A stretch of 64,000 nucleotides of DNA from Deltaproteobacteria bacterium (GCA_016186945.1 JACPKR010000003.1:11542-75541); one strand, 5' to 3'. Shown: positions 36,184-44,381, numbered from the stretch's first letter. The notes: a model not told the origin generated them from the letters alone. Translations and numbers: made by a program.

Positions 36184-37158
36184 GTGGAAATTCGAAAGCC
36201 TCTTTGGCCTAACCAGCATTGTATTCTAATCAGCCACAATACTGAGACCTTTTATCTCATAAGAAAAATTGCTCTTACGACTCGATGGGAACTCGTGAAA
36301 ATGACTCCTTTTGTTGAGGAGGCCATCACCGAGGTTTACGAGAATCGCGCCTTCTTGGTGATTGTTGATGATGAAGAGGCCTATCCTGCCCCCTTAACCA
36401 TTCGACGCTTGTCACGAGAACCAAAACTCCTTGCCACGCCCATCCTTTGCACTCTTAATCCCGCTCACCGCGGCGAGCAGAATATCCTCTCCGAGCTTGG
36501 CAACGTCGATGTCGTTCTCAAACCGGTCACACCCACGATTTTCCTTCCCCGACTCACCCATCTCATCAAATTCTGGCAAGCGAGTCCCTACTACAATCTC
36601 AGGGTCGCTGCTAACAGTCTGGGACGCGACCCTTCGCGAGACGATTTCGACCGCTTGCTCACGCTGCTTCCCATTCACGAAACCCATCCTTTGCTCGTCT
36701 CTATCACTGCCTTACTACTGGCTAGCAAGCAATTCATAAGCCAGGCTGAAAAGCTTCTGCTGAGAGCGATCGAGAAAGATCCTTCTCGACCTTTGCCCAT
36801 TATAAGCTTGGCACATATATATCTTCACCACGCAATGCCAGCAGAGGCGCTGAAATTGCTCAATGCGCTCTCCCGCAAATACGACGACACACTCTTTGCT
36901 TTTTGCGACCTGATTCAGGCGAATCTTATGGAAGGCGACATCTCAAATATATTGAAAGTCTTAATGCATGGACTCAAGCGTGAGTTTAGCATCCCCGTCC
37001 TCCCCTCACTGTTCGCAAGCTACGCAATCGCCGGTCGGCAAGATGAAACCCTGAAAAAGTATTTAAAACCCTACTGGGATCTGTATAAAAAAATGAAAGC
37101 GAGTTGGCTTCCTTGGGACAAGCCCGAAGGTCCCGGACTCGTCCAAACCAAAACATGA
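36184..37158 (+). CDS. Atypical receiver-like domain plus TPR-like protein
   Basis: LVIVDD, TPIL and VVLKP pattern of a REC fold; AEKLLLRAIEKDPSRP TPR-like helices. Confidence 0.6.
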   Translation: MEIRKPLWPNQHCILISHNTETFYLIRKIALTTRWELVKMTPFVEEAITEVYENRAFLVIVDDEEAYPAPLTIRRLSREPKLLATPILCTLNPAHRGEQNILSELGNVDVVLKPVTPTIFLPRLTHLIKFWQASPYYNLRVAANSLGRDPSRDDFDRLLTLLPIHETHPLLVSITALLLASKQFISQAEKLLLRAIEKDPSRPLPIISLAHIYLHHAMPAEALKLLNALSRKYDDTLFAFCDLIQANLMEGDISNILKVLMHGLKREFSIPVLPSLFASYAIAGRQDETLKKYLKPYWDLYKKMKASWLPWDKPEGPGLVQTKT

Positions 37159-40100
37159 TTTCTGTTTTCAAGAACATTTTTATCATTCTCATCTCCCTCT
37201 TTCTCATTTTAGTGGGCCTCGATTTTGTAATTGACAATCCTTACACTCAAAAATTCTTCAGGGCCTATATTTCTGATATCGTGGAAAAGGAGTCTAACTT
37301 AGCACTCGACTTTGAGGGTTTGGAAATTGGTTTAGTCCCGCTCCAACTCGATTTTTTTGGGCTTACCCTATCCGTGAAAACAGAACAACCTGCGCCTCCC
37401 CTTGCGACAGCTACACAATTGAAGGTGACCGTCTCGCTGATTTCTTTGTTCTTCGCACGTCCAAACTTCCTTGACATTGACATTGACGGGCTAAATCTGA
37501 AATGGCCTCCAGGGGCACCCCTTTCTCCTTTGCGAGGACCTGACGAAACTTCAGAACTGGCCCCGCTCATTCCGATCGGACAGGTTCATATTTCCAACTC
37601 ACAGTTCCTTTTCGATTTTGCTCCCGGAGAAACAAGCGTCTCCAGCGTGAATCTGTCGGGAGTTAACATAGTGGGGTCTTTCGAGAGATGGGATGATTTT
37701 CAAGCATCACTCTCCGCCATGTCCGTCAATTTAACAGTCGATGATAAGGAAATTCTCTCCGGGACCAGGCTTCTCATCTCTCAACTTACATTTACCGGAC
37801 ATGAATTTGATCTGCGACACCTCCTTGTGAAGGACAATTCCTTCTCGCTTCAAGGAGGGATCAACGGCTTCCTTGGCTTCGAACACGACAAGCTGAGAAG
37901 CGTCAAGCTCGACGCTAACCTTGACGCTGACGCTGATCTTAGGATTCTCGACCATTGGTTCGACATGAAAAAAACTTCTGGTGGCGCCAAGGCGAAGGTG
38001 CATTTTTATGCGCACGTTCCTGTGGATTATCCCGGCGACACAAGTTTCGTAGCGGAAGGTGAAGCAGAGGCTATTGACGCATATTTGGCAGGCAACCGTA
38101 TCTACAACGCGCGCTCTTTTTTCAAATTGGATAACGAGAAAGTAGCGTTTGATAATCTAGAGTTAAAGGTCGGTGACAAAAATCACGCGAATTTAGTGGG
38201 AGAGATTGTCTTTAGCAAGCAGGTCGATTTCGAATTTCACGGCAAAGCATGGGACCTTCCCCTAACCCAGATTGTGTCATCCTTCGATGAAGACCTGACC
38301 GTTATTGACTTTATCGCGAATACGGACACGGTTCATTTCAAGGGGACTGGCTCCCCCTTTTCCATGGAGCTTTGGGCAGACGGTGAGTTAACTGATCTGC
38401 ATTTCCCCGAACTTCCGATCAAACCTGACATCTATAGACGCCGGCCTTCATGTCGGGTTCAAGCCCATCTTTTTTTCACGGAGTACCTGCTCGACTTCAA
38501 GGACACGGAAGGCGTCTGTTACATTCCTCCCGAGAAACTTCACCCGCAAGCCAAGCCTGATCGAATGCGTGCTCCTGAGGGAGCATTGTTTGCCAGCTCG
38601 GTCAGTGTGCGCGATATCATCCATTTTCGCGATGGTCCGAATATGAAGATTTTCGGGGTCAATGCCGACCTTGGTTTGAGCCAGAGCTTTTTTCAGGTCG
38701 ATCTTAACGGAGTCGGTGATGTCGAGACGCATATTGTAGAAGAGAACAAAGAAGTTCGCGTCATTAATTCGTTCGATGTTCATTCACTTGCATTTCAAAA
38801 GGTCTTTCTTGGCGATGCAAAGGGAACTTTGACCGTCGTCAAGGACCATATGTTCTGGGACGATGTTTCCATAGAGAAGGGGGACCGAACATTCTATGGG
38901 GAACATGGTCGCTATCTTTGGAAGGAGGATAGGCTCCAATTCTCGGTCGAGGGTGCCCATCTTAGTGCGGCAGACATCGAACTGTTTTCCGCCATTGCTC
39001 GTGAGGAGGGCATTCAACCGTATTCCTTTGCCATCGACTCATTCCGTGGGACCTTCGACATACCGGTTAAGGATCCCTGGCATTCTCGAAACAGCCTAGA
39101 AATGAAACTGAGCGACGTCTTCTTCAAAGAGAATTTGTTGGCTACAGGTATCAATGCAACGGTCCTCCATAACGGGAATGAATTTCGCATCCCCAAGTGG
39201 ACTGTGAATTTTGGCTCTCTCTCCCTGACCGGTCAGGCCATTCTAAAGAAAGCCCGATTCGACTCCTTTTTGGCCGGAGATGACTTCCTTAACCTAACGT
39301 TTACCACAGCTAAAGTTGATGACCCCCGTGCCACAAACGGTTTGACTCAACTGGAGAAGATTCAGCCAATAAAGACATACCTTGACCCGCTGAAAATTGC
39401 CGGAATGGTTGACGTGACAGGGGAGCTAAGAGGCGAGATTGCCTCACTGAGCGGCCACTGGGAGGGAAGATTCTCAAGTTTAAAAATCAATCGCTTTCCC
39501 GTTTACCCTGTCAACTTTCAGGGTTTTCTGAACACGTCCCACCTGCAAGTCTATCTTAGCCAAAGCGGGAACAATCTGGTGGGTCGAATGGACGTTGATA
39601 TTTCCACGCCTGGTCAACCCTTTTCCTGGTACTTCAAACTGAAGCAATTCGACATGCGACCTTTCACCAAGGACTTCTTTTACCAGGACGCGCGCAATTT
39701 TGCATACCTGACAGCGAGCTGGGCTTTGGAGGGAAAGCTAGATCAATGGTGGCAAGCCAACGGGAAATTGATGATCGACGATCTGCGCATGAATATAGTC
39801 CCCCATGGTAGGGACCCTACCGTCAACCCTCTGGTGATTAGGAACACTGCCCCTGCTGTTTTGCTTTCATCATCGCGCGGGTGGGTGTTTGAAAATCCGG
39901 ACGGTCTTGAAATCGAAGGAGACGGCGTAACAGCGAATTTGCAACTCTCCGAGATGAATCGTCCTCCGGAATCCCTCGATATGCGTATCCATTCCGACCT
40001 CGACCTCCGTTTGTTGACACAGTTCTTTCCTGGCATACAATCAGCGACAGGCACCGTCAACGCCCGCACAAGGATCAGTGGAAGCGTCATAAACCCTAAC

Positions 40101-41339
40101 GTTGCAAGTAGCATTCGCAATGTTCCAGCGAAGGAAACAACGGGCACCCTACCCCTTTCACTCAACATCCCCACAATAAGCCCAGCAATCCAGGATATCG
40201 AAATTGATGCCAACTACTTAAATGGCATTCTTACAGTTAAAAAAGTGAGTGGGAAAAAAGGAAAGGGAATGTTCAAGATTGAGGGCCTTGTCAATTTGTC
40301 CTCGGAGCAGCAAAAACCAATGACGCTTGTGAATATAAAACTGGACAAACTCTCCCTCAATTATCCGCTTCCCTACCTGCGAATGATCCAGACTGTTCTT
40401 GACGGAGAGCTGACGGTCTCTGGTCTTGGAAAGCCCTTTGATGTTGCGGGAAACATCAACATAGTGTCGGCGCAGACAGAGCGGACCCTTGACACCAAAG
40501 CGGAAAACATCCGAGAGATCCCTATTGGCGATATGGTTCGGGGATTTCGGGAAGACGAAACGTCTTTTTTCAACTACAATATAGCTGTTGAGGGGACGCG
40601 AAGCATCCGCGTTCAGAACCCAGCAATGAATTTGATCATGTCGTCAGACATTGTCCTTAAGGGTACTAACGAGAAACCGATCATCGAAGGAATCTTTAAG
40701 GTAGATGAGGGAAAATTTAGATATCAGAGAGACTTCGTCATTTCCCGCGCCGAGCTTGTATTTGACAATCCCTTGCAAAACGACCCCAAATTGGACATCC
40801 TGGCAAGATCTGAATTCAATCCTTACACCATCACGGTTTATATTTCTGGCGAAGGAACCAAACCTCTGATCGACATCCATGTCGACCCACCGACAAAGGA
40901 AGACGGTAGCATCATCACCCGCCTGGATGCCATCATCCTCCTGTCGCAGGGGAAGCTTCCCGCAGCAGAGAGTCGTACCCAAGACACTCGCAACGTCGGC
41001 GTCATGACAGCCTTCAATTTGTATGCCAGCCAACTGCCCTTTCACAAGTTCAACGAACTGACAGGCCAACGGTACATTTCGCCCTATGTAAATTACACAA
41101 CAGACGAGCAGGGGAATCTTGTGCCTCAGCTCAACGTCCCCATTCACATTACAAATGTCATAGAAGCGGTGGTTCGGCAGATTCCCAACACTACCCTTTT
41201 GACTGTGGAATTTCCAATTCACCACAATATTTCAGTATCTGGCAATGCTTCGTCTACACAGAGACGAACTGACGTTATACAAGAGGAAAGTCAGTTTCAA
41301 AGTGGGATAGACATGCGATTCGCCTTCCCCTTCAAGTAG
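37155..41339 (+). CDS. tamB: Translocation/assembly module TamB-like protein
   Basis: N-terminal TM anchor, long beta-rich body, C-terminal DUF490-like region (GTNEKP.IEG, FDNP..NDPKLDI); adjacent to an Omp85 gene. Start set at ATG 37155. Confidence 0.8.
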   Translation: MISVFKNIFIILISLFLILVGLDFVIDNPYTQKFFRAYISDIVEKESNLALDFEGLEIGLVPLQLDFFGLTLSVKTEQPAPPLATATQLKVTVSLISLFFARPNFLDIDIDGLNLKWPPGAPLSPLRGPDETSELAPLIPIGQVHISNSQFLFDFAPGETSVSSVNLSGVNIVGSFERWDDFQASLSAMSVNLTVDDKEILSGTRLLISQLTFTGHEFDLRHLLVKDNSFSLQGGINGFLGFEHDKLRSVKLDANLDADADLRILDHWFDMKKTSGGAKAKVHFYAHVPVDYPGDTSFVAEGEAEAIDAYLAGNRIYNARSFFKLDNEKVAFDNLELKVGDKNHANLVGEIVFSKQVDFEFHGKAWDLPLTQIVSSFDEDLTVIDFIANTDTVHFKGTGSPFSMELWADGELTDLHFPELPIKPDIYRRRPSCRVQAHLFFTEYLLDFKDTEGVCYIPPEKLHPQAKPDRMRAPEGALFASSVSVRDIIHFRDGPNMKIFGVNADLGLSQSFFQVDLNGVGDVETHIVEENKEVRVINSFDVHSLAFQKVFLGDAKGTLTVVKDHMFWDDVSIEKGDRTFYGEHGRYLWKEDRLQFSVEGAHLSAADIELFSAIAREEGIQPYSFAIDSFRGTFDIPVKDPWHSRNSLEMKLSDVFFKENLLATGINATVLHNGNEFRIPKWTVNFGSLSLTGQAILKKARFDSFLAGDDFLNLTFTTAKVDDPRATNGLTQLEKIQPIKTYLDPLKIAGMVDVTGELRGEIASLSGHWEGRFSSLKINRFPVYPVNFQGFLNTSHLQVYLSQSGNNLVGRMDVDISTPGQPFSWYFKLKQFDMRPFTKDFFYQDARNFAYLTASWALEGKLDQWWQANGKLMIDDLRMNIVPHGRDPTVNPLVIRNTAPAVLLSSSRGWVFENPDGLEIEGDGVTANLQLSEMNRPPESLDMRIHSDLDLRLLTQFFPGIQSATGTVNARTRISGSVINPNVASSIRNVPAKETTGTLPLSLNIPTISPAIQDIEIDANYLNGILTVKKVSGKKGKGMFKIEGLVNLSSEQQKPMTLVNIKLDKLSLNYPLPYLRMIQTVLDGELTVSGLGKPFDVAGNINIVSAQTERTLDTKAENIREIPIGDMVRGFREDETSFFNYNIAVEGTRSIRVQNPAMNLIMSSDIVLKGTNEKPIIEGIFKVDEGKFRYQRDFVISRAELVFDNPLQNDPKLDILARSEFNPYTITVYISGEGTKPLIDIHVDPPTKEDGSIITRLDAIILLSQGKLPAAESRTQDTRNVGVMTAFNLYASQLPFHKFNELTGQRYISPYVNYTTDEQGNLVPQLNVPIHITNVIEAVVRQIPNTTLLTVEFPIHHNISVSGNASSTQRRTDVIQEESQFQSGIDMRFAFPFK

Positions 41340-41345
41340 GGCTTG

Positions 41346-44300
41346 ATGAAACATATTGTATCTATAGTGTTCAAGACAATCAATTTGGGGACAAACTTTT
41401 TGAAAAAAGTTATTTCCCCAAACCCCTTTTCAAAAACTTCAATATCTAAAGTTTTTTGGGTGCTCATGTTCGCAAACAACGCGATCGGAAGCGATCTCGT
41501 CAAATCGTTCCCCCTGGATGATTATAAGAACAAGAGCATTCTGGAACAGCGTTACAAATCTGTCGCGACCCTTTCTGATCTGAGCCGACTATTCAAAGAT
41601 ATCGAAAAATCGAGCAACATTTCCAAACTCGAACTGCACCGTGAAGGTGATCAATTCCACTGGGTTCACACACTCGCACATCCTATCCGCGACATAAAAA
41701 TCAAAACAAGCATCCGATTTAGAGAATTCACTCAAATCATCCGTAACAAATATGTGGGACGGATGAATTCGCTCCACCTCCAAGGCGTGCTCGTCTCGGA
41801 AATTTTGGAAAATTTTGAACGCATCGGATACCCCCATGCGCAGGCGAACTTATCCATCCTGGATGAAGATGGCTTTGCGGAATATGTTGTCGAAGTATGG
41901 CCAGGACTATCCTGCATCATTGCGGATGTTCAAGCTCCCGAGTCGCCCCATGCTGAAGTCTCCCTGGAGATCGGTCCCGGCGACCGTTGCGACATTAATC
42001 AAATCAAGGCTGCTGTCGAAAACTATGAACGCAAACTTATAGAGGAAGGATTTCAACAGGCTTCCCTTGAACTTGAGCCCCTCCAGTATTCCCGAAACAG
42101 AACCGTTCTCAACGTTCATATCCGAGGAGTCATCGGAAAAAAAATCGATTACCTGTTCATCGACGAGTCGAAAATCTTTTTCGGCAGCGCTATAGAAGAA
42201 GATATGATCCAATATTTTCGAGAAAATTTTTCCGATCCCAGGCAGGTGCGGGTCACATTGATAGACTATTTCAAACGCAAAGGCTACGACTTTGTAAGTG
42301 TCAAAGGCCCGTACCTTCAAAAGGAAAGTGATGACTTTCTAACCTATATATTTCTTGTAAACCCAGGCATAGCGTTCAAAGTTTCCGACATGCAGATAGA
42401 AGGTAACAGCCACCTCTCGACGGAAGACATCAAGGCCGCCATTGATTTTCAGAGCTTCTGGGAAAGCCTACCGATCATCGGTAAGGAAAAGTCCTATGAG
42501 GACATTTCCAAAGACATCCAACATTTCTACCATTCGAAAGGCTTCTGGAAAGCGACTGTCCAGCATTCACACACATCCTTTGACAGAGTTTCCAAATCCG
42601 CAAGAATGAATATTCTGATAGACGAAGGACTGCCCCACATGTTCCGTTCCCTCACGATTACGGGCAATCAAAATATTGATGAGGGTGATATCAGAAAACT
42701 GTTCCCTGCCCACGAGGGCGACCCACTCTTACAAAATCAATTGATCGACTTCGAATACTCTGTCCAGTCAAAATATTTCGAGCAAGGTTTCATTGAAAGT
42801 AAAGTTGCGACAAAGGTCGATACGTTCATTCAAAAAGAGACCGTCGCGACAGATGTAACCCTGCTCATAACGGAAGGCCCCCTCGTCCGCATCGGCACGA
42901 TCACTATCAAGGGATTGGTTGACACGAGGGAACCCGTCGTGCGAAGGGAGCTTCTCTTCAGTTCAGGTGACACTTTCAACCAAGAATTGATTAACCAAAG
43001 CAGAACAGCTTTAGTAAACCTAGGCATATTTTCTTCGGTTGCGATCGAGCGTTCCGAAATCAAACAGCACGATTCAACTCATGAAATCGACATCGTCATT
43101 CGTGTCAAAGAAGGAGACCCTGGCCGTGTCAAATTCGGCCCCGGCTTCAATCTGACCCGAGGGCTTCAATACGTGGGGGAAATCTCCTATAACAATCTTG
43201 GAGGAACAGGACGAAGGGTTAACGTGCGCGCAGCCGTCAGCGAAGAAAGGCAGCAGCAGTCCATCAGCGATCTTACGGATAAAGAAGGCAAGACACTCTT
43301 GGGACGTAAAGTCGGGCTTGGTTTTACAGAACCATACCTTCTCAATCTTCCCGTGCATGGTAATATCTCACTCTACCACCAGGCTATCGCTGATGACGTC
43401 TGGAAGTTGAGCAACTCAATTGAATTGTCCCTTTCCCATCATTTTTCACCTGATATTTTTATCGGTTCAGTCACACCGTTTTATCGTTTCAGCAGATTGC
43501 GGGATGAAGGGACAAGGGAGCAAAGGGACAGCTTGATTACCACCGGCAGTTCCGACATTGGAGCGTTGGGGGTTCGCTACAGACTGGACCGTCGAGACAG
43601 CTTGCTGTGGCCTACAAAAGGTTTCCTTTTCAACATCGAGGCCAGTTGGGCCCGTTACAACTTTTTCGGTCAGTACCGCTACTTCAAATGGCATCTCAGC
43701 TCAAGCCAGTATTTTGAACTCATGAATGACCTTGTCTTTGCATTCGGCATTGGCATTACCTCTTACGAAAGGGTACTGAGAAGGGGAGCCAATGCGGAAA
43801 CAGTCGACGTCTTGCCTGCAAACAATCGTTTGCTCGCAGGAGGCAGTAACGAAGTCAGGGGCTTCGACCACCAACTGGGACCTTATGTCCTAACCAAACG
43901 GACCGACCCTAGCAGCCAGACAGTCACGTATGATCGGGAGCCGCCCTTAGGTGGCTCAAAACGTCTCATTTTGAAATCGGAGTTACGACGTCAAGTCGTG
44001 CCGAACCTACTCGCGTTGTCCACCTTTCTCGACATTGGCAACAGCTTTTTCTCTCTTGATGAGGAAGATAAATTTAATAAGCGTTTCAGCGAATCTAAAA
44101 CTGCACAGACGGAACGAAGCATGGAAGACAATTTCAGCTACGACTTCTCCGAGCTTGTCACGCACCCCGAATACATACTGCTCAAGAATTATCAGTCATA
44201 CGGCCTCGCGCTTAACCTTCTCACCCCACTAGGTTCTTTCAATGCAGCCGTAGCACTTCCGCTGCGAGAACCTTCTAGCGATAGATGTCGTGGCGAAGGT

Positions 44301-44381
44301 ATCTGCTTTCAGAGAGCGAAAGATAAAGAGCTGTGGTTTCAAAAATTCAAAGTTGAGTTGAACATAGGAGCAGAGTTTTAG
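41346..44381 (+). CDS. tamA: Omp85-family (TamA/BamA-like) outer membrane protein with POTRA repeats
   Basis: POTRA-like repeats (ITGNQNI, VVRRELLF), EISYNNLGGTG, AGGSNEVRGF, and terminal NIGAEF. Confidence 0.85.
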   Translation: MKHIVSIVFKTINLGTNFLKKVISPNPFSKTSISKVFWVLMFANNAIGSDLVKSFPLDDYKNKSILEQRYKSVATLSDLSRLFKDIEKSSNISKLELHREGDQFHWVHTLAHPIRDIKIKTSIRFREFTQIIRNKYVGRMNSLHLQGVLVSEILENFERIGYPHAQANLSILDEDGFAEYVVEVWPGLSCIIADVQAPESPHAEVSLEIGPGDRCDINQIKAAVENYERKLIEEGFQQASLELEPLQYSRNRTVLNVHIRGVIGKKIDYLFIDESKIFFGSAIEEDMIQYFRENFSDPRQVRVTLIDYFKRKGYDFVSVKGPYLQKESDDFLTYIFLVNPGIAFKVSDMQIEGNSHLSTEDIKAAIDFQSFWESLPIIGKEKSYEDISKDIQHFYHSKGFWKATVQHSHTSFDRVSKSARMNILIDEGLPHMFRSLTITGNQNIDEGDIRKLFPAHEGDPLLQNQLIDFEYSVQSKYFEQGFIESKVATKVDTFIQKETVATDVTLLITEGPLVRIGTITIKGLVDTREPVVRRELLFSSGDTFNQELINQSRTALVNLGIFSSVAIERSEIKQHDSTHEIDIVIRVKEGDPGRVKFGPGFNLTRGLQYVGEISYNNLGGTGRRVNVRAAVSEERQQQSISDLTDKEGKTLLGRKVGLGFTEPYLLNLPVHGNISLYHQAIADDVWKLSNSIELSLSHHFSPDIFIGSVTPFYRFSRLRDEGTREQRDSLITTGSSDIGALGVRYRLDRRDSLLWPTKGFLFNIEASWARYNFFGQYRYFKWHLSSSQYFELMNDLVFAFGIGITSYERVLRRGANAETVDVLPANNRLLAGGSNEVRGFDHQLGPYVLTKRTDPSSQTVTYDREPPLGGSKRLILKSELRRQVVPNLLALSTFLDIGNSFFSLDEEDKFNKRFSESKTAQTERSMEDNFSYDFSELVTHPEYILLKNYQSYGLALNLLTPLGSFNAAVALPLREPSSDRCRGEGICFQRAKDKELWFQKFKVELNIGAEF
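41362..41460 (+). mobile_element. Family B left 99 nt, in frame inside tamA
   Basis: CTATAGTGTTCAAGACAATCAATTTGGGGACAAAC...GTTTTTTGGG; encodes IVFKTINLGTNFLKKVISPNPFSKTSISKVFW. Confidence 0.92.

Follow-up and report, generated by a model that had tools for sequence, protein, structure and literature searches.

A truncated miniature transposable element in frame within the signal-peptide region of a TamA-like Omp85 gene

The window analyzed here, a stretch of 64,000 nucleotides (G000:C54:11542-75541), belongs to a metagenome-assembled genome (MAG) of a Deltaproteobacteria bacterium. This genome, G000, comprises 2.66 Mb in 76 contigs and is 91% complete. In the window, a tamB-like gene is followed by a gene for a TamA-like protein of the Omp85 family. 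Near its 5' end, this second gene contains the left part of a miniature inverted-repeat transposable element (MITE), named B in this text, which is read in frame between the first codons of the gene and the end of its signal-peptide region. The features of the locus, counted from the first letter of the window, are the following.

37155-41339, plus strand: tamB-like gene, 1394 aa as called, with its TAG stop at 41337-41339 and a match to Pfam TamB (PF04357, E 2.4e-17).
41334-41340, plus strand: Shine-Dalgarno (SD)-like AAGTAGG, which overlaps the stop of tamB and ends 5 nt short of ATG 41346; unaltered by the insertion.
41346-41362, plus strand: ancestral start and first codons (MKHIVS) of the TamA-like precursor; the orthologs of G001-G003 begin with ATG-MK 9 nt past the tamB stop.
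41346-44381, plus strand: TamA-like Omp85 gene, 1011 codons without defect, with Pfam POTRA and Omp85 matches and a stop at 44381.
41362-41364, plus strand: C-TA context of the left end of B, with the TA target dinucleotide at 41363-41364, from comparison with the B consensus.
41365-41460, plus strand: left 96 nt of B, read in its single open frame as IVFKTINLGTNFLKKVISPNPFSKTSISKVFW; the left flank is ...GTATCTA and the right flank CTCATGTTCGC.
41385-41456, plus strand: two retained B hairpins (about 41385-41421 and 41432-41456), from an RNA fold of 41320-41500 (z = -2.6).
41400-41402, plus strand: alternative in-frame TTG start inside B, which would give MKKVISPNPFSKTSISKVFWVLMFANNAIGS; GGGGA lies 8 nt upstream (duplex -5.5 kcal/mol).
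41451-41474, plus strand: sole hydrophobic core, VFWVLMFA (V36-A43), with VFW and the first base of V39 from B and LMFA from the gene.
41466-41468, plus strand: ATG of the automatic gene call in the protein collection (P0002, 971 aa, MFANNAIGSD.., no signal).
41475-41492, plus strand: c-region NNAIGS, with a signal peptidase I cut predicted after AIG, IGS or MFA by the -3/-1 rule.

The N-terminus of the precursor reads MKHIVS-IVFKTINLGTNFLKKVISPNPFSKTSISKVFW-VLMFANNAIGS-DLV... The segment 41365-41460 matches a full B copy over 96 nt with 95.8% identity (blastn, E 3.6e-39). This match is not due to chance; in a shuffle control, pieces of 32-34 nt gave 0 matches. The left terminus CTATAG is intact, and the piece retains hairpin 1 and most of hairpin 2 before ending in a G-run at about B position 100. 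From there to its end, B is absent, that is about 69 nt comprising hairpin 3 and the right inverted repeat. The reading frame in phase with ATG 41346 is the sole stop-free frame among the six of B. In a scan of the plus strand, no terminator-like or promoter-like site was created by the insertion. The original prediction had placed exactly 99 nt (33 codons) of B at a C-TA site after MKHIV, with the right arm lost and the frame preserved. Site, loss and frame are borne out, the frame being open from 41346 to 44381. The length stands to within one codon: S6-W38 indeed spans 33 codons, with 32 of them (96 nt) newly added.

Comparison with relatives gives the ancestral state. In the three same-genus orthologs (G001-G003), uninterrupted signals of 19-20 aa, MKNYILIALFSCSSLLFA, MKTIVITLGLCISTSLMFA and MKSLILIAVVLCSSLLYA, each followed by D, start at the matching ATG-MK. 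A MAFFT alignment of the four N-termini shows a single 31-residue gap opposite the B peptide, and the window's S/DLV (the slash marking the cleavage point) falls under A/DLV of G003. Because of these matching starts, uninterrupted signals and single gap, B is seen to lie within a former signal-peptide coding region, after codon 6, as had been predicted together with an alignment gap of about 33 residues. Hydrophobic signals are likewise found at the N-termini of more distant orthologs from the order, and the protein therefore needs one.

Two histories fit this comparison. When the flanks are joined without B, a 17-18-aa signal with an 8-residue core is obtained, vs. 15-17 residues in the core of the orthologs. 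The deletion may have been confined to B, the 69 nt then corresponding to its right part and the second TA; the ancestor would have been ATG AAA CAT ATT GTA TC-TA-TG CTC ATG TTC GCA, encoding MKHIVSMLMFANNAIGS (18 aa) before D. It may instead have extended into the gene and taken 24-27 nt (8-9 codons) of the former core as well. In that case, LMFA would correspond to L-[LM]-[FY]-A, the conserved signal end, and NNAIGS would have been inserted later. Both histories stand because the JGI metagenomes, searched with a gapped pattern and with one unique 39-mer, yielded neither an allele without B nor a near-identical strain.

The leader contains one hydrophobic core, VFWVLMFA, which straddles the junction between B and the gene. 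Its 8 residues have a mean Kyte-Doolittle value of 2.58, and no uncharged run is longer than 8. Upstream, the n-region carries 6 Lys, 5 of them in the B part. A Sec signal was taken to consist of a basic n-region, an h-region of about 7-15 residues and small residues at -3/-1, which puts the present core at the lower limit. A core of 8 residues is close to the minimum tolerated in Sec signals. By alignment with A/DLV of G003, the mature protein would begin near D50 (DLV). The partly element-derived h-region had been proposed at the outset, and VFW is indeed B-coded. The suggested rescue by an internal ATG devoid of SD sequence fails: the 41466 product, MFANNAIGS.., has no signal, nor does the one starting at GTG 41460. 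In addition, the start options first considered were incomplete, the in-frame TTG 41400 with GGGGA 8 nt upstream having been overlooked. Because the only hydrophobic core straddles the junction and later starts leave no signal, an exported protein must translate B codons. Judged from these start options, either B codons are translated within the leader or the protein is not exported.

The host gene encodes POTRA repeats and an Omp85 barrel immediately 3' of tamB (Pfam), and the layout of tamB stop and start is kept within the genus. Its product scores 235 bits with the NCBIfam BamA model (TIGR03303, cut-off 297) and 68 with the TamA model (NF047950, cut-off 625), both below cut-off, and its size is about 1000 aa vs. 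about 580. A separate BamA of about 770 aa is encoded on contig C17 of the same genome. Because of these scores and of the separate BamA, the accurate label for the Omp85 gene is "TamA-like by synteny" only. Orthologs of the TamA-like gene are found across the sampled order, in nearly all relatives examined. A word-indexed protein search for closer homologues returned only the window's own protein and matches at 23-25%.

B itself is a repeat of which G000 contains about 90 full copies and more than 100 partial ones, with 142 left ends and 158 right ends. The copies are 93-99% identical. Their modal length from TA to TA is 167 nt (48 left/right end pairings), for a net insertion of 165 nt, or 55 codons. 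A consensus of 62 full copies runs from CTATAG to CTATAG, with ends [C]TA-TAG...CTA-TA[G]; conservation is at least 90% in TATAG and about 50% for the outer C and G. The terminal inverted repeats are TATAGTRTT...AATACTATA, and TA is duplicated or shared at both ends, a TA produced as target-site duplication not being separable from a TA belonging to the repeat. The only stop-free frame encodes IVFKIINLGTNFLKKVISPSPFSKTSIFKVFWGEAWRGTFFQKRSSPQILFPKYY, a peptide for which a Pfam search gave no family. The consensus folds into three hairpins (z = -6.1), and an Rfam scan of the window gave no RNA family. B thus fits the definition of a bacterial MITE: it is short (less than about 300 bp), occurs in many near-identical copies, has no transposase coding capacity and carries terminal inverted repeats. 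As for a related autonomous insertion sequence (IS), no pair of B ends spaced by 0.4-3 kb around a transposase was found in this incomplete assembly. B is absent from 25 relatives, including the three same-genus genomes.

Computational excision of 92 paired copies left only two sites deep within long open frames. Hence, B is largely restricted to gene ends, and in-frame copies persist in termini and cleaved leaders. A genome-wide enrichment of B in frame with downstream genes was considered and rejected, 6 of the 20 full copies located just upstream of long open reading frames (ORFs) being in frame, as expected by chance. For this reason, an open read-through alone is not evidence of translation.

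B is found in frame in several unrelated and otherwise intact genes, namely the TamA-like gene, two genes on contigs C60 and C24, and a dnaJ gene; orthologs without the insert are available for the first three. At C60:11983-12147 (L025, minus strand), the signal peptide of an SBP_bac_5-like protein is interrupted by a full B of 165 nt in the same open frame. The leader consists of ...SSMPLYS, 55 B-encoded aa and then IIFLFILAGSASAA, followed by SDNE, and the signals of same-genus orthologs are uninterrupted. At C24:24241-24436 (L031, minus strand), B and a nested 30-nt palindrome resembling repetitive extragenic palindromic (REP) sequences together make 195 nt, a multiple of 3, in frame. This insert separates GTG-MARSKSAF (SD AGAGGAG) from the first membrane helix in a PMT_2 glycosyltransferase. 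The stretch from B to this helix is devoid of canonical start codons, and the orthologs have N-tails of 6-14 residues without insert. At C8:9900-10051 (minus strand), the DnaJ sequence ...GGFFQKMFRT runs into 51 B-encoded residues before the stop. Its J, CXXCXGXG and C-terminal domains are all present, and its C-terminal tail is MITE sequence.

Further copies adjoin or join coding sequences. At C12:82569-82760, a B copy with an internal deletion adjoins guaA. No ATG, GTG or TTG was found between B and the conserved ILIIDYGSQY, nor in the reconstructed empty site, and the start of guaA may be within B or non-canonical. At C18:4203-4343 (minus strand), a left-truncated B (positions 30-170) fuses two frames of about 400 aa into 886 codons; both frames start with their own signal-like segment, and the upstream gene has seemingly lost its stop to B. 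At C27:21349-21492, a left-only B (positions 7-113) lies in frame between ATG-MFS and IFGAVACRLIGAM... in a 490-aa membrane protein without Pfam match, a layout like that of the Omp85 gene. For an ABC-exporter case on C40, no ortholog was detectable in the same-genus genomes. More generally, about a dozen left-only copies end in the G-run/GGAGG region (B positions about 96-121) with no TA at the break, for example C76:7305-7405, C66:47188-47293, C75:39463-39567 and C60:5719-5821. They often lie 6-35 nt upstream of the ATG of a gene, as in GGGGGGAGGtctggcATG, and possibly donate a Shine-Dalgarno sequence. Hairpin 3 acting as a transcription terminator was considered as an explanation for left-only copies and is not supported, a scan of a full copy showing no terminator-like site.

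On balance, and with a modest degree of confidence, we favor a functional chimeric leader translated from the ancestral ATG 41346. In the course of events that we infer, B would have entered the TamA-like gene at a TA in codon 6/7, in the sole orientation and frame in which B is stop-free. An in-frame deletion would then have removed the right 69 nt or so of B, possibly together with 8-9 codons of the old core, and joined the ...SKTSISKVFW encoded by B to ...(V)LMFA, the remainder of the signal. Initiation would remain at ATG 41346, coupled to tamB. This coupling should persist because AAGTAGG (duplex -5.0 kcal/mol with a generic anti-SD, assumed and not read from this genome) and the distance to the tamB stop are unchanged, the ATG opening seven bases past the TAG (6-nt distance). 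The product would be a precursor with a 49-residue chimeric leader made up of a long basic n-region (MKHIVS and the B peptide), VFWVLMFA and NNAIGS. Signal peptidase I would remove this leader and leave the mature TamA-like protein unchanged, which would explain why the insertion is tolerated. The strongly hydrophobic junction, the intact 3-kb ORF and the conservation of the gene across the order argue for selection. Under neutrality, the open frame and orientation (1 in 6) combined with an in-frame deletion (1 in 3) are expected in about 1/18 of cases.

A further proposal is plausible, though somewhat short of probable, namely that the truncation was compensatory. A full B would have left only a ..KYY-(M)LMFA core and crippled export, and loss of the right arm would have been selected for rebuilding VFWVLMFA. 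The MITE residues would now be indispensable for the export of a conserved outer-membrane assembly factor. B would then be a 55-codon "coding-compatible" MITE, surviving preferentially in cleaved leaders and protein termini, and a free-standing analogue, outside Rickettsiales, of the Rickettsia palindromic elements (RPEs) discussed below.

Several observations weigh against a functional leader. In one alternative, the gene would be a young pseudogene or its product would not be exported. The signal would be damaged by the insertion and deletion, no functional TamA would be made and the frame would have been kept by luck. Translation would start at 41466, or export from 41346 would be inefficient, and TamB would work with BamA or not at all. 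The database gene call begins at ATG 41466, past B, and gives a signal-less product. The h-region is half as long as the 15-17 residues of the orthologs, and export may be inefficient with such a core. The inserted piece differs from the consensus of the 62 full copies at 3 positions in 99 nt, all three differences being common to other copies (4, 12 or 61), without private substitutions. Because these differences recur in other copies, the insertion is not datable: its age is unreadable from substitutions, it is indistinguishable from family variation, and it may be too recent for an intact ORF to prove purifying selection. With a separate BamA in the genome, the cell might tolerate losing TamA. 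B copies upstream of ORFs are read through in frame about as often as chance predicts, and the finding itself was picked for being in frame. On the other side stand the 1011-codon ORF free of defects, the intact start codon and SD/coupling context, and the joint chance of about 1/18 given above. Moreover, the junction recreates a strongly hydrophobic 8-mer, the gene is kept in nearly all relatives sampled, and in-frame B is also found at the N-termini of two or more other genes. Overall, we consider a pseudogene or a non-exported product unlikely, while giving it real weight. Another start would lead to a different leader. From TTG 41400 inside B, a conventional 31-aa signal, MKKVISPNPFSKTSISKVFWVLMFANNAIG cut before S, would be made, and its start, its n-region and a portion of its h-region would all come from B; the opening 18 codons, beginning with ATG 41346, would serve as a minor leader or go unused. 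This TTG is in frame, its SD-like duplex of -5.5 kcal/mol is no worse than that of ATG 41346, and the n-region would be basic and of ordinary length. In addition, the PMT_2 gene on C24 and guaA on C12 are devoid of a canonical start between B and the first conserved segment, so that starts within or upstream of B are plausible there. However, TTG codons are weak starts, and this one is placed in the hairpin 1 loop of B with GGGGA in the stem, which may hinder initiation; the unaltered ancestral ATG, coupled to the tamB stop, would be read first. Initiation at this TTG therefore seems a decidedly poor prospect.

Finally, the MAG contig could be mis-joined or collapsed in a repeat, the true locus being arranged otherwise. 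There are about 200 B copies, and the Logan contigs break inside B, so that 41392-41430 (39 nt between them) are bridged by the MAG contig only. However, both junctions are present in independent Logan assemblies from several samples. Contig L024, which has the exact TamB-like protein on record, contains the complete tamB, its stop and ATGAAACATATTGTATCTATAGTGTTCAAGACAATCAATTTGGGGA and ends inside B at 41391; it holds the rarer GACAATC variant of this copy. Contigs L022 and L023 begin with CAAAAACTTCAATATCTAAAGTTTTTTGGGTGCTCATGTTCGC... at 41431/41432, carry the junction between truncated B and the gene and continue through the gene (five samples). At this right junction, which recurs in several samples, the truncated B passes into unique sequence and not into another repeat. 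Moreover, both flanks belong to the same gene, MKHIV.. fitting the ortholog start and ..LMFA..DLV the end of the ortholog signal, and the entire 96-nt insert is shorter than a typical read. An assembly artefact is thus highly improbable.

If the chimeric leader works, a cleaved signal peptide would serve as a "safe harbor" for mobile DNA inside an important gene, and transposon sequence would have been recruited into a functional targeting signal. G000 also contains another in-frame insertion in a signal peptide, and one in an N-terminal tail. There is also a consequence for annotation. Gene callers start the TamA-like gene, and probably other B-adjacent genes, past B, which yields outer-membrane or periplasmic proteins without signal and mislocalized predictions.

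B shares features with several known systems. Like B, the Correia elements of Neisseria and MITEs of the IS630-Tc1 type are 100-170 bp long, have TA ends with a CTAG-like target and occur in high copy number at gene boundaries. Correia elements start with TATAGTG, as B does. Unlike them, B has three hairpins and a 55-codon open frame; no partner transposase with B ends was found in the assembly, nor any match in Rfam or another database. As for the length of the leader, autotransporters and two-partner secretion proteins have an extended signal peptide region (ESPR), and such Sec leaders of about 50 residues with an N-terminal extension work in Gram-negative bacteria. The ESPR is a conserved and vertically inherited motif, whereas the extension of the TamA-like leader is transposon-derived. 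No ESPR family is found among the Pfam matches of the precursor (P0001, E <= 0.001).

In-frame intragenic MITEs are well documented, with RPEs (44 insertions in Rickettsia conorii genes), ERIC/RU, QMITE1 and the Anabaena MITEs (for a review see PMC10969869). Like B, an RPE is a short (about 150 bp) palindromic mobile repeat with a stop-free frame and is lineage-specific (Ogata et al., 2000, summarized in PMC10969869). As with B, RPEs are found in frame in several unrelated genes of one genome, these genes staying intact; the parallel drawn originally holds, with further in-frame copies in the C60, C24 and dnaJ genes. In contrast with RPEs, B resembles a DDE-type MITE in its TA ends and clear terminal inverted repeats, and its sequence and peptide gave no similarity to a Pfam family. 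The host is an uncultured deltaproteobacterium-like MAG and not a Rickettsia. The in-frame copies of B are located at protein termini or in cleaved leaders, and not at the surface of folded domains, and the copy in the TamA-like gene is truncated.

A further comparison is that of Yersinia pestis YPO1552, in which an RU-2 repeat forms part of a 41-aa signal predicted by SignalP (Delihas, PMC2759123). There too, the N-terminus of a putative exported protein includes an in-frame MITE-like repeat of about 168 bp, and this repeat makes up part of a predicted signal of about 41 aa. The homologues of YPO1552 elsewhere have unrelated signals. YPO1552 is a small hypothetical protein, whereas the present host is a conserved 1011-aa Omp85/TamA-like factor whose ancestral signal is reconstructable. 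Also unlike YPO1552, the element is truncated here and its junction forms the hydrophobic core. The locus is a clear new example of a known phenomenon and not a new class of mechanism. It is the same kind of event as in YPO1552, and a better-anchored example of it owing to its conserved host gene, its reconstructable ancestral signal and a core that arises from the truncation.

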